DNA of 64,000 nt from Squalus acanthias (Eukaryota). This document shows, one piece after another, positions 42,436-58,374 of the stretch. The notes under the pieces were generated by a model. It saw only the letters and a list, made by a program, of their open reading frames with translations. It had not been told where the DNA came from and did not search any database. The stretch spans positions 93,434,001-93,498,000 of the forward strand of contig CM059438.1 of the NCBI GenBank assembly GCA_030390025.1. Reading direction: 5' to 3'. Each line of letters starts with the position of its first letter. The first letter of the stretch is position 1. Both the position numbers and the translations under genes were made by a program.

Positions 42436-43817
42436 ATGTGGTTCATCTCCTCCTTCCCAAAATAAGAACTTTTATCAGGACACCGTCCCTCCCTGAAAGG
42501 GTGCTGGATGCAGATTCAATAGTAACTTTCAAAAGGTTATTGGATAAATACTTTTACAGGAAGAATTTTGGGGAGGGAGCAGGGGGGGGGGGGGGGGAGT
42601 GGGACTAATTGGATCGTTCTTTCAAAGAGCCGGCACGATGGGTCGAATGGGTGCCTGCTGTGCTGTAAGATTCTAATGTCCCTCAGGTCTGGCGTGACTC
42701 CAGTCCCACAGCCCGTGGTTGACTCAACGCCCCCGGAGCTGCTCGAGCAAGCCACTCAGTTGTTTAAAATACAAATTGCAACGAAGCAAAAATGTGGCCT
42801 TGTCGTCATTGCCCTGAGAAAAACTTGACCCCCAGCTCAACGTCACAAATTTGAACTACGCAAGCAAGCCACTTACTTCTACTGCACACTGAAACAAGTT
42901 CTGTACCATCTACAAGATGCACTGCAGCAACTCGCCAAGGCTTCTTCAGCAGCACCTCCCAAACCCGCGACCTCTTCCACCTAGAAGGACAAGGGCAGCA
43001 GGCGCATGGGAACACCACCACCTCCAAGTTCCCCTCCAAGTCACACACCATCCTGATTTGGAAATATATCGGCCGTTCCTTCATCGTCGCTGGGTCAAAA
43101 TCCTGGAACTCCCTCCCTAACAGCACTGTGGGAGCACCTTCACCACACGGACTGCAGCGGTTCAAAAAGGTGGCAACTAAGGATGGGCAATAAATGCCGG
43201 CCTTGCCAGCGACGCCCACATCCCATAAAAACTAATTTAAAATTTTTTTGAAAACACCCTTGGGGCACAAAACACAGGCTGGAGTACAAATACTACAAAA
43301 GGGGCATTTGGTCAGTCAGTATGTTTTATATGTAATAGGATATTTTAACTCCCAAGTACTTAAATAATGCCAAGCAATTTCTGCAACACTAACGCATTGA
43401 TTGTAATATCACCTTTTTGGTCATTTTTATCTTGAATCTTACAAGAAAATACAAATACAGAAACTCAGATTATCTGCATCATTTTCACTCTGATAACCTC
43501 TCATTCCTGCAAATGCTGTGCTAGAAAAATGTACAACAACCTCATCAAAAGGTAACCCACTATTATAAAGAGGATTTATCGGATTCCTTTCCTTATTCAA
43601 AATTAGGCTCCAAGCAGAGAGCGTCTGGCTGTAGGAGAACAAATCCGTGAAATGGGGGGAGGGCAGTCGCGGGAGCTGGTGGGGCAGTCCCACGAGGGGG
43701 GGGGGTCACAACGATCCTCATGCCAACTCCAGCCGGCTGCAAAAGCTGCGTCTTTCGGAGCGGTTGCTGTTCGCGGGGATTGTGCGGTTGGTGGGGCAGC
43801 CCCTGGACCAGGTGTCA

Positions 43818-43963
43818 TCACTCACTGAGTTCCCAATGCAGAGACACCATGCAATTGGGGAGGGTAGGGGGAGCAGATGGACTGGGCCCTCTCGCACACC
43901 AGCTGGCAGGTGGCAAACAGCCGTATTGGCAGTGCCCACCTGTTCTTCTCACCTGCTGGAGAT
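43818..43963 (-). CDS. Candidate last exon (option B) of the Gln-rich gene
   Basis: Long C/T tract ending ccgccaag|AT; phase 1 gives DLQQVRRTGGHCQYGCLPPASWCARGPSPSAPPTLPNCMVSLHWELSE*. Unique GC-rich sequence, but acceptor and frame are ambiguous. Confidence 0.35.
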
Positions 43964-44832
43964 CTTGGCGGGGGGGGGGGGGTGAAGGAAAGGGGGGGGA
44001 AACACACACAAAAAAAAGACCCCTTTTCTTAGTCCCCTCATCAGAATAATAAAGCATTAGCGCGGCAGTCAAACACAGCAAAATACTGCACACTATGTAA
44101 GAAGGAATCTGAAGACTGTACGCACCGTCAGAGCAGAGTGTGGCCACACTTACTAGAAGAGCTGACGACGTTCAGCAAGGACAGAATAAGGTGCCTGATT
44201 TCACCACCACAATATCATTTGCAAAGCAATCACTGATAGGCACTGAGATTATTCGACAGAACCGGCTTTGTTCTTCCACGCCCCCCCGCACTCAATCGCA
44301 AAAAAAGGTATAGGATTCTTTCAAAAAAATAAAAGTATCTGTGTATAAAAATACAGCAATCGCCTCCCAAACATGATCGTGTTGCAGTCGAGCACTGTGG
44401 TCGTGATTGTTCTATTTATGAGATGTGTCTTTGGGCTGTGCTGGGATCAGTCCACGTCTCCTGCTCCGGTAATGCTCCTCTCTCTCAAGTGTTAGACTGC
44501 AGAGCATCGAAGAATCCCAGAGACGGGGCAATCTGGAGGAAACAAGTGGCACACACACAGAATAATGAACAAACAGCTATCTGGGCTCACGCTTACAGAC
44601 AGCGGCCGCCTTCCTTCAGTAGAGAGCTCCTTGTTCAGATTGTGGGCACAGGGATTGGAAAACTGCCCTTAGATTGTGGCAAAAACTGAGGAGGTTTTTC
44701 CCCCTGATTCCCAACAGAGAAACTGTGGGCTAAAGCAGACATCAACTGGTACTTTCTGCTGCCAAAGCCCGAGGTTAAATTGTTTCATTGAATGTTAAAC
44801 TGTTAAAATTTACTTATTAATTCCCCTTCCTT

Positions 44833-45552
44833 CAGAATTTTAAAGCGGGTGCAAGAACAGAGAGACCTGGGGGTGTATGTACACAAATCTTTGAAGGTGG
44901 CAGGACAAGTTGAGAAGGCTGTTAAAAAAGCATACGGGATCCTTGGCTTTATTAATAGAGGCATAGAGTACAAGAGCAAGGAGGTTATGCTGAACCTTTC
45001 TAAAACACTGGTTAGGCCTCAGCTGGAGTATTGCGTCCAATTCTGGGCACCACACTTTAGGAAGGATGTCAAGGCCTTGGAGAAGGTGCAGAGGAGATTT
45101 ACCAGAACGGGACCAGGGATGAGGGACTTCAGTTATGTGGCGAGACTGAAGAAGCTGGGGTTGTTCTCCTTAGAGTGGAGGTTAAGGGGAGATTTAATAG
45201 AGGTGTTCAAAATTACAAAGGGTTTTGATAGAGTAAATAAGGAGAAACTGTTTCCACTGGCAGGAGGGTCGGTAATCAGAGGACACAGATTGACAAAAGA
45301 ACCAGAGGCGACATGAGGAAACTTTTTTTTTAATGCAGCGAGTTGTTATGATCTGGAATGCGCTGCCTGAAAGGGTGATGGAAGCAGATTCAATAGTAAC
45401 ATTCAAATGGGAATTGGATAAATACTAGAAGGGGAAAAATTTACAGGGCTATGGGGAACGTGCAGGGGAGTGGGCCTAATTAGACAGCTCGTTCAAAGAG
45501 CCACCACAGGCACGATGGGCCGAATGGCCTCCTTCTGTGCTGTACTATGAGT
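44833..45552 (+). mobile_element. CR1 LINE 3' fragment
   Basis: ORF 44849-45316; same subfamily as 34520-35845. Confidence 0.9.
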
Positions 45553-45855
45553 TAATATTAAAGCATTACATGCGAGGTACTGAAGCTCCGTCTTTTATAG
45601 TATCTGTACCTTGGCCACACCACAGTGCTGCGAGTTTGTGAATACTTTGGCTCGAGCTCACACTGTCTCTTTGTACCCGGTTCTTCAATGGGCCACTGTG
45701 TACAAAGCTAATGTACAGATTAAAGCACCTGCCTATACTCAGATAGAGGCTATTGAAGTAGTGACCAGTCCCCCTCCCCCTGCACCACTCCTCATTCCTC
45801 TTCCCCTGACTCTGACTGGGATTTGATTCCAAAGGCATCAACCGCCTACCAGTAC

Positions 45856-45925
45856 CTTGCTCACTCTTCCGAGCAGGCTGCTCAACGGTTTGGGGCCTCA
45901 CATCTGAGCTCTCTCCTGTCCTCCC
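45856..45925 (-). CDS. Candidate exon (option B) of the Gln-rich gene
   Basis: (TG)n..aattgtcag|GGG ... CAAG|gtactg, or G|gtaggc with the exon ending at 45850; phase 0-1. Translates GRTGESSDVRPQTVEQPARKSEQ. Confidence 0.35.
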
Positions 45926-56474: not shown

Positions 56475-56500
56475 CTGCCACCTAGTGACTGTTGCCTGCA
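56475..56500 (-). promoter_or_regulatory. Candidate CTCF site
   Basis: Minus strand reads TGCAGgcaacagTCACTAGGTGGCAG: a near-consensus core plus a TGCAG upstream motif. Confidence 0.45.
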
Positions 56501-57451
56501 ACAGCATGTGGACCTGTTGACACAGGCAATCCCCATTATAACTGACTACACTGGCAGTCTCCATGATATACGTCGACATAAAGGCACGACCAAAATTCGT
56601 GACAACAGGAAGTGGGTTGCGGACAGGAAGTGCATGCACACACAAGATTTTTAAATTATTTTGCACACGCTTATGTATATATAAAGATAGCGCCCTTTAA
56701 CAAAGTCAACACCAGGGCACAGCGAACTGTCCTATCAATGCATCGTGCCAGGAGGTGAAGCAAAGAATGATACAGCACAGAAGGAGGCCATTCGGTCCAT
56801 CGTGCCTGTGTCGGCTCTTTGAAAGAGCTCTCCAATTAGTCCCCACTCCCCCCTGCTCTTTCCCCATAGCCCTGCAAATGTTTCCTTTTCAAGTATTTAT
56901 CCAATTCTCATTTGAAAGTTACTGTTGAATCTGCTTCCACCGCCCTTTCAGGCAGCGCATTCCAGTGGTAGGAAGTATGTCTACATTTGCAACGCTCTCC
57001 ACGGCAAGTTCCAAACCATGGCCTGGTCAGGGGAAAGATGCCAATTGGAAGTGAGGGAACAGATCTCAGAGGCAAGTCAGCACATGCCTCTCACATCCAC
57101 AGGACGTCCCAAAGCGCTTCACAGCCAATGAAGTACTTTCGAAGTGTAGTCAGGCGGCAGCACACAGCAAGGTCCCACAAACAACAAAGTGATAATGACC
57201 ACATTAAGTGGTTGAGGAATAAATATTGGCCAGGACACCGGGGAGAAGTCCCCTGTTCTTCGAATAGTGGCCGTGGGATCTTTTATGTCCACCTGTGAGG
57301 GCAGACGGGGCCTCGGTTTAACGTCCCATCTGAAAGACGGCACCTCCGACAGCGCAGCACTCCCTCAGTGCTGAACTGAGGTGCCCGCCTAGATCTTGTG
57401 GAATGGGACTTGAACCCACAACCTTCTGACTCAGAGGGGAGAGTTTTTTTT

Positions 57452-57910
57452 AAATTCGTTCCTGGGATGTGGGCGTCGCTGGCAAGGCCGGCATTTATTG
57501 CCCATCCCTAGTTGCCCTCGAGAAGGTGGTGCTGAGCCGCCTTCTTGAACGGCTGCAGTCCGTGTGGTGAAGGTGCTCCCACAGTGCTGTTAGGGAGGGA
57601 GTTCCAGGATTTTGACCCAGTGACGATGAAGGATCGGCGATATACTTCCAAGTCAGGATGGTGTGGAACTTGGAGGTGATGGTGTTCCCATCCGCCTGCT
57701 GCCCTTGTCCTTCTAGGTGGAAGAGGTCGCGGGTTTTGGGAGGTGCTGTCGAAGAAGCCTTTGCGAGTTGCTGCAGTGCATCTTGTAGATGGTACACACT
57801 GCAGCCACGGTACGCTGGTGGTGGAGGGAGTGAATGTTTAAGGTGGTGGGTGGGGTGCCAATCAAGCGGGCTGCTTTGTCCTGGATGGTGTCGAGCTTCT
57901 TGAGTGTTGC
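57452..57910 (-). mobile_element. LINE family B 3' fragment
   Basis: Near-identical to 721-1185. Confidence 0.85.
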
Positions 57911-58089
57911 TATCCACTGAGCCACAGCTGGCAATGCCGGCTCACAGAGCGCTACTGACGGAGTTCCACCTGCAAGCAAATGCTTACCAACTCTGTGATC
58001 AGTCAGGGAAACGAGGAGCAGTGTGGCAAGGGGGAGGGGGACGGGAACAACCGCACACGTAAATGACACAAATAAAGCCCAGAGTTTAC

Positions 58090-58374
58090 CTGAATATCGT
58101 TCCGTTGAAGCACATCCTGGAGGATTCCGATGGATTGCACGGCCGACACCATCTGGGAGTGGCTGGGGTTCTGCAGTACCTGTGCAATCAGCGGCCCCTC
58201 TTTCGATATCTGCTGCTGCTGCTGCTGCGTTGCTTTGGCCTGCAATCCCACTGGCTGCTGTTGGGTTATGACGCTGCTCGGTTGATGCACGGATGGCGGC
58301 TGAGGGCTGACGACTTGAGACGTCCCGAGGACCTGCAGGTGCAGAGGGGGGAGCTGGGCCGCAGTGGGTTCTTG
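58090..58374 (-). CDS. Exon of an unidentified Gln-rich protein gene
   Basis: ttctcttttctcag|CAA ... ATTCAG|gtaaac; 285 nt, phase 0-0, open. Translates QEPTAAQLPPLHLQVLGTSQVVSPQPP...ATQQQQQQISKEGPLIAQVLQNPSHSQMVSAVQSIGILQDVLQRNDIQ. Confidence 0.75.

Follow-up and report, generated by a model that had tools for sequence, protein, structure and literature searches.

A glutamine-rich gene tail in Squalus acanthias and its putative place in an animal transcription-factor family

A 64,000-nucleotide stretch of Squalus acanthias DNA (C14:93434001-93498000, on contig CM059438.1 of an assembly of 3.7 Gb; hereafter the window) carries on its minus strand a spliced glutamine (Gln)-rich gene in which no domain had been recognised, and this raises the question of what protein its exons belong to. 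The original prediction, made from the DNA letters alone, had proposed either a lineage-restricted gene or a disordered tail of activation type, belonging to a transcriptional regulator for which no start exon had been found. The second proposal fits the present results, with the exons forming the tail behind a conserved core that resembles zinc-finger and helix-turn-helix (HTH) proteins, and with activation as the part that we infer. With a probability of roughly 0.6, the six exons described here encode the spliced Gln-rich C-terminal 340 residues of a ~860-residue member of an undescribed animal transcription-factor family. In such a protein, a GATA-related zinc finger and two Cys-capped HTH modules of the conserved basic N-terminal core would make the contact with DNA, and the Gln-rich tail would recruit co-activators; zinc binding, a nuclear location and transcriptional activation would be expected as well.

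Exons, transcripts and shark orthologues

The five minus-strand exons proposed originally were borne out, with AG and GT ends, phases of 0-0, 0-0, 0-0, 0-1 and 1-0, and 325 open codons (300 when the 75-nt exon is omitted), and the Gln run described in the product is present. The end of the gene had been placed wrongly at 43600, which lies in the 3′ untranslated region (UTR); the coding frame closes in a sixth exon, and the six together encode 340 residues, of which 17% are Gln. The contigs cited below are from X1 and X5, which were taken as RNA from their intron-skipping contigs, and from X8 and X12, which represent related organisms. Residue numbers are those of the shark orthologues, P0001 among them.

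58374-58090, minus strand: coding exon, 285 nt, 95 codons; orthologue residues ~520-613; 80% identity to P0001
53624-53406, minus strand: coding exon, 219 nt, 73 codons; orthologue residues 614-686; RNA contigs of X5, X8 and X12
52369-52295, minus strand: coding cassette exon, 75 nt, 25 codons; orthologue residues 687-711; spacing on X5 record 22
51122-50816, minus strand: coding exon, 307 nt; orthologue residues 712-~812; X1 record 2 aligns ungapped
49849-49761, minus strand: coding exon, 89 nt; orthologue residues ~814-843; spacing on X1 record 2
44532-44485, minus strand: terminal coding stretch, 15 codons and TGA, missed originally; equals the C-terminus of P0001
43422-44484, minus strand: 3′ UTR, at least to 44032 on the contig that carries the coding exons (X1 records 1 and 2, X8 record 23)

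The frame and splice sites are intact in all six exons, and insertions or deletions relative to the orthologues are in-frame only; the 307-nt exon lacks a few 3′-terminal codons that the orthologues have, with the frame kept. The sixth exon and the preceding Gln codon are identical to P0001 843-858 at 16 of 16 residues. The 285-nt exon is the 5′-most one present in the assembly, and its acceptor sits in the tail of a repeat resembling a short interspersed nuclear element (SINE). Separate, gapped contigs cover 43882-44244 and 43422-43701 of the 3′ UTR, and an open reading frame (ORF) at 43596-43814 had no match to the orthologue.

Open frames alone are weak evidence, because 12-44% of the same-length minus-strand AG..GT segments in the window are also open (52/278, 84/310, 127/288, 33/275 and 71/221 at these exon lengths). 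The exons are judged to be real because each of them matches shark proteins, in order, and because of the RNA contigs, which skip the introns between them. Splicing was read from the spacing of matched pieces on the contigs: on X5 record 22, 76 letters separate 53406-53626 from 50935-51121, in keeping with the 75-nt exon, and X1 record 2 has 88 letters between 50815-51121 and 44032-44532, in keeping with the 89-nt exon. On those pieces, the contigs differ from the window by ~1 letter per 100 or fewer.

The tail is likely alternatively spliced, because the Heterodontus isoforms P0003 and P0004 differ at the 285-nt and 75-nt exons: P0003 is without the 285-nt exon, and the 75-nt cassette exon is missing from both. 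An internal GT at 58180 (minus strand), after the I-A-Q codons of the 285-nt exon, is where P0004 breaks off. A 40-nt AG..GT candidate exon at 54383-54344 was rejected, as it has no counterpart in the orthologues.

When the 219-nt exon was used as a query, four proteins of 750-870 residues were returned, from Pristiophorus, Heptranchias and Heterodontus, all of which are sharks. In P0001, residues 519-858 are matched by the six exons in order, with an identity of 267/332 over residues 521-858, and by this alignment the window carries just the last 40% of a protein of ~860 residues. The shark orthologues begin with a basic N-terminus, followed by a basic Cys-rich core of ~340 residues at positions ~90-430. 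Searches for a full-length match to a well-known protein found none, and the orthologues are 'uncharacterized' gene models. Models from Carcharodon (LOC121280770), Latimeria (LOC102355420), Nematostella (LOC5507258) and Trichoplax (TRIADDRAFT_53407) have the core in common, and those from sharks match the window gene exon by exon; all are predictions without names or domain annotation. P0012 is presumably from Callorhinchus. The label of P0002, 'histone-lysine N-methyltransferase 2D-like', is misleading and stems from low complexity; a KMT2D-like identity was rejected, as there is no SET or PHD domain and just a weak GATA match. The gene is also neither DNLZ nor CARD9, in line with the absence of their motifs reported originally: zf-DNL matched only once, on the unplaced contig C3474, and C14 carries none of the 51 CARD matches.

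The conserved core and its distribution

We refer to the proteins that share the core at residues ~90-430 as the core family. A search with these residues matched 89 proteins and an alignment-based search 101, each scoring ~8000 candidates inside length limits, and 353 representatives at E<=0.001 came from an exhaustive profile search; the best 150 of these were examined. The named matches included Trichoplax, anthozoans, Hydra and a jellyfish; among invertebrate bilaterians, molluscs, annelids, a brachiopod, a nemertean, chelicerates, hemimetabolous insects, a sawfly, echinoderms and amphioxus; and among vertebrates, sharks, gar, bowfin, sturgeon, paddlefish, coelacanth, salamanders and turtles. 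Thirty further matches that were looked up added the sponge Oscarella, a bryozoan, a barnacle, a sea spider and the myxozoan Thelohanellus. The shark core is identical to that of Nematostella at 213/354 positions (60%), of Trichoplax at 190/352 and of Oscarella at 111/337, and to those of salamander, turtle or gar at 59-63%; a 41-sequence core alignment has 34 invariant columns, many of them Cys. In a FastTree analysis of 65 chosen sequences, gnathostomes, chondrichthyans, salamanders, turtles, anthozoans, echinoids and most insects were recovered with support of 0.99-1.0, and the deep nodes were without resolution, with fast-evolving taxa misplaced. The sequences fit vertical inheritance of a mostly single-copy gene.

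No mammal, bird, crocodilian, squamate, frog, teleost, lamprey, fly, moth, beetle or nematode was found among the organism-named matches (67 of the 89 and 72 of the 101); these counts rest on protein searches, the genomes of the absent groups not having been searched. Given the 59-63% identity of the shark core to that of salamander, turtle or gar, the absence of the groups listed above suggests several losses of the family. Such scattered retention among vertebrates (sharks, gar, sturgeon, coelacanth, salamanders and turtles) would provide independent losses to correlate with biology. Several of the turtle models (P0108, P0113, P0225, P0227 and P0243) are short or partial over the core, through either annotation faults or ongoing decay. 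The myxozoan Thelohanellus kitauei, a reduced parasite, has three diverged paralogues (P0161, P0186 and P0206), all without the GATA-like finger. P0187 and P0189 are very distant members, with 24-26% identity and a more GATA-like finger end, and may come from outside animals.

The core matched no Pfam family above the cut-off. GATA was the sole recurring Pfam match, found in 20 of 50 members and below the cut-off (PF00320, best 23.1 bits against a gathering score of 26.8; 14-16 bits in sharks), and in the distant member P0189 the match to the GATA3 finger reaches E 1.6e-7. Module 1 is a finger of the form C-x2-C...C-N-x-C in 52 of 65 sequences, with a loop of 24-52 residues (mode 38, in 27 of 53 sequences with the finger). 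It shares with GATA factors the finger half C-x2-C...C-N-A-C-G-L followed by basic residues; GATA spacing is C-x2-C-x17-20-C-x2-C, in contrast to the longer loop of the core family. Trp-Arg ahead of the second hairpin is a feature of GATA fingers; it was seen in 0 of 65 sequences, and a Pro-Arg/Trp pattern in 46 of 65. The core family also differs in having a single finger followed by a helical Cys-rich region of ~260 residues, which GATA factors do not have. Module 1 is likely to be GATA-derived on its sequence, even though it fails these spacing and Trp-Arg features. Module 2 consists of C-P..C-x-C, a helical bundle and C-E...Y-S-N-N-F (58/65), and module 3 contains C-C-x3-C (63/65), W-R, A-E-M-L, C..F...G-x-S (57/65) and P-x-x-H-G (54/65). 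The median net charge among 58 cores is +31. A tandem duplication linking modules 2 and 3 is not supported, the profile-profile score of 13.2 being within the range of 30 column-shuffled controls (8.5-18.7).

The AlphaFold2 model of the core gave a predicted local distance difference test (pLDDT) value above 85 in most 10-residue blocks, with low-confidence flanks, and modules 2 and 3 without the finger gave a pLDDT of 89.7 and a predicted template modelling score of 0.77; the core is thus predicted to be folded. Model residues ~190-255 weakly matched the DNA-binding domain (DBD) of SETMAR (Z 4.8, root-mean-square deviation (rmsd) 2.4, 55 aligned), TrpR (Z 4.7, rmsd 2.1, 48 aligned), Spo0J (Z 4.7, rmsd 2.9, 59 aligned) and Mos1 (Z 4.3, rmsd 2.7, 55 aligned), and residues 97-147 weakly matched the TetR-family HTH protein PfmR (Z 3.9, rmsd 2.8, 42 aligned); matches at Z 3.6-4.8 over 42-86 residues may be at background values. 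The recurring weak HTH rows, at Z 3.7-4.8 over 40-65 residues, were SETMAR, TrpR, ParB/Spo0J, Mos1 and KorB for module 3 and TetR-type proteins for module 2. In these comparisons, both modelled modules have a three-helix HTH-like geometry that weakly resembles the DNA-binding domains of the Tc1/mariner type (SETMAR, Mos1 and Tc3) and of bacterial repressors (TrpR, ParB and TetR). A search of the ESM Atlas by features gave no usable match for P0001 90-430 or P0189 50-415, and by structure a TM score of 0.27 at most; a PDB sequence search with the core profile gave none below E 0.14.

The tail aligns well to chondrichthyans alone (local scores of 1306-519, against 147 or less for others), so that its sequence, unlike that of the core, appears to be shark-specific. 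Its composition is kept across phyla even though the sequence is not: Gln makes up 10% or more of the tail in 31 of 45 members, and 29-33% in anthozoans. The pLDDT is low after the core. The tail resembles the Gln-rich activation domains of the Sp1/NF-Y type in being a long low-complexity sequence of Gln, hydrophobic residues, Ser and Thr, a likeness of composition for which sequence homology is not expected.

What the core and the tail may do

Transcriptional activators, Sp1 and NF-Y among them, are typically built in this way, with a Gln-rich, low-complexity tail that evolves fast after a basic zinc-finger/HTH core. On the more specific proposal, which we hold to be about evenly balanced, the family would consist of sequence-specific transcription factors with a DNA-binding architecture of their own (a long-loop GATA-derived finger and two zinc-capped HTH modules) that existed in the sponge-bilaterian ancestor, kept ~60% identity from anemone to shark and was overlooked through independent losses in mammals, birds, frogs, teleosts, flies and nematodes. 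Catalogues of animal transcription factors have been built from domains known in humans, flies and worms. Our literature searches found no paper on the core family and no mention of six orthologue gene identifiers, supplements that could list it by identifier being outside the search, and the family and its likely function appear to be undescribed. The gene itself was already predicted in other sharks, so that the novelty is in the family and not in the exons. If the transcription-factor reading is true, a single-copy family that is conserved from anemone to shark, has no Pfam model and has a confident fold without any strong match would count as a member so far missing from the ancestral regulatory toolkit of animals, and it is accessible to direct testing in Nematostella, Hydra, sea urchin, amphioxus, cricket or salamander.

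Several results weigh against this reading. The finger is without the GATA spacing and the Trp-Arg pair, and it is absent or altered in 12 of the 65 sequences, including ticks and a myxozoan, some of these being partial models. The top fold match overall was an MLLE helical bundle, for the first bundle of the core (Z 5.5, rmsd 2.0, 54 aligned), with none at Z 8, and Foldseek against PDB and BFVD returned nothing at E<=0.001, which is not evidence of a new fold; the HTH geometry of the models may be just a common helix arrangement. The tails contain less than 10% Gln in 14 of 45 members, including gar, bowfin, sturgeon, a turtle and several insects. The X12 differences suggest modest constraint on the tail, with a ratio of non-synonymous to synonymous differences (pN/pS) of ~0.5 (10 non-synonymous and 6 synonymous among the 16 listed of 25). 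As for the gene in this species, genome-wide searches (P0001, P0011, P0153 and P0200) found no exon for residues 1-273 or 310-518, and the sole 5′ piece, for residues 274-309 at C14:93060369-93060476 on the plus strand (33/36 identical to P0001), is a broken copy.

Some of these points would be accounted for if the protein were a chromatin co-regulator or scaffold without sequence specificity, with a degenerate finger and Cys-rich helical modules whose partners would be proteins, nucleosomes or RNA, a role proposed for the atypical GATA fingers of MTA, RERE and GATAD2. The non-canonical finger, dispensable in some lineages, the weakness of the HTH matches and the peptide-binding nature of MLLE are in its favour. 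We nevertheless consider it unlikely, as the core is strongly basic and has two HTH-like modules, the last of which is followed by a conserved Pro-x-x-His-Gly/Lys linker (54/65), in a stretch aligning with the HTH-plus-linker of SETMAR/Mos1, and no Pfam co-regulator domain was found in the members scanned. The same likeness to SETMAR raises the question of whether the core is an anciently domesticated DNA-binding region of a transposase (of CENP-B/SETMAR-like origin) that binds transposon ends or heterochromatin. SETMAR/Hsmar1, Mos1, IstA and Tn3 resolvase are among the HTH matches, the bipartite Tc3 DBD matched with Z 3.6, rmsd 11.8 and 86 aligned, and the CC..C / C..F...G.S / HG pattern may resemble the N-terminus of DUF7869-type transposases; a search of the genome of this species for DUF7869 (PF25273) matched no copy, controls included. 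However, the Z values of the transposase HTH matches are at background level, with the SETMAR DBD tied with unrelated HTH rows, and compared with SETMAR, Mos1 and Tc3 the core family has extra Cys clusters and no DDE or SET domain. A transposase domain is present in 0 of 21 long members, no DDE or RNase H domain was among the best 25 of 27 Pfam families listed for 50 members, and there is mostly one gene per species in a tree that recovers animal clades. Such a domesticated core is thus quite improbable as the full account, and a transposase origin would be compatible with the transcription-factor reading.

A lineage-restricted shark gene, the other proposal of the original prediction, might be supposed from the tail, which aligns well to chondrichthyans alone, and from the first one-exon search, which gave only the four shark proteins. 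The same shark proteins carry the core conserved to sponge, placozoan and cnidarians, which refutes it as proposed and leaves it a very slight chance, in the event that the tail is transcribed apart from the core in this species.

The missing 5′ half and the neighbourhood

The 5′ ~518 codons of the Gln-rich gene are absent from the assembly. The first of the genome-wide 5′-exon searches used a stricter filter. A local tblastn search of 857 kb found no exon for residues 1-273 or 310-518, though it detected the 16-residue last exon; a hidden Markov model search of ~740 kb of sequence found no further 5′ exon, and none was found on contig C3474, which carries DNLZ. The piece for residues 274-309 is the 3′ part of one core exon, cut at its 5′ side where a SINE-like head is fused to it; it has a GT donor but no exons beside it, a conserved Arg is changed to His, and it lies 374 kb before the window start. 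No long duplication was seen around it, and it must be a partial duplicate or else what is left of a rearrangement. Two unstranded features lie 5′ of the first visible exon in the window.

62069-62568, no strand: run of 500 N between microsatellites; candidate assembly gap for the exons of residues 1-518 (gap and mask being indistinguishable)
63800-64000, no strand: CpG island continuing to ~64500 beyond the window; CpG observed/expected ratio 0.6-0.85 against 0.0 just before

The N run is 3.7 kb 5′ of the first visible exon, and a second run of exactly 500 N is at C14:93051176-93051675, 8.7 kb before the stray piece. The CpG island (63800-64500) contains ZNF143-like, YY1-like and NRF1-like motifs and is a candidate promoter of the Gln-rich gene or of a neighbour. 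X8 record 30 and X12 record 15 extend ~1800 and ~1890 nt 5′ of the 219-nt exon, which fits a full coding sequence because 285 nt and ~518 codons need that length; X5 record 22, with 1 difference in 221, extends 331 nt, which is 46 beyond the 285-nt exon.

The missing exons were probably lost to an assembly gap, likely in the N run at 62069-62568. The other explanation is a real truncation or rearrangement in this species, with the DNA-binding half lost or broken and a transcribed tail and a stray exon fragment left. The genome-wide searches turned up no 5′ exon, not even when the best-conserved exon was the query, and none was seen within the 857 kb; the SINE-truncated, Arg-to-His copy is on the opposite strand and near the other 500-N run; both ends of one 444-kb block without 500-N runs carry inward-pointing pieces of the gene; and the core family seems prone to loss. 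Against this, none of the six tail exons is damaged, RNA contigs nearly identical to them show correct splicing, one of them exceeding the length of the first visible exon, the 500-N run is exactly where the missing exons belong, and the region is fragmentary, as seen from the placement of DNLZ on an unplaced contig. We consider truncation unlikely on this balance.

As for the neighbourhood, a GoLoco exon at 36967-37182 of the convergent gene, named GPSM1 originally, was confirmed; the gene may be GPSM1 or GPSM2, the comparison chains all being GPSM2. DNLZ shares contig C3474 with thrombospondin type-1 (ADAMTS-type) and sugar-transporter exons, and Peptidase_M16 and CARD searches did not place the human neighbour genes near the window. 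A last exon with a DUSP domain lies ~177 kb beyond the window (L018:8303-8599, minus strand) and resembles USP20/USP33. At L013:5120-6529 (plus strand), an open frame of 470 codons begins like a signal peptide and has a Thr-rich stretch and, ahead of a hydrophobic segment, a basic site resembling a cleavage site; it looks by eye like a retroelement envelope gene, with no Pfam match. Contig C3474 also has a Harbinger-like pair, both open, of a Myb/SANT-like ORF (L072:5797-6525, plus strand) and a 451-codon DDE_Tnp_4 ORF (8481-9833, minus strand). In the window, tandem arrays at 54940-56187 (a unit of ~33 nt beside SINE-like sequence) and 10155-12724 (C/T-rich) give rise to the long low-complexity ORFs of the ORF track.

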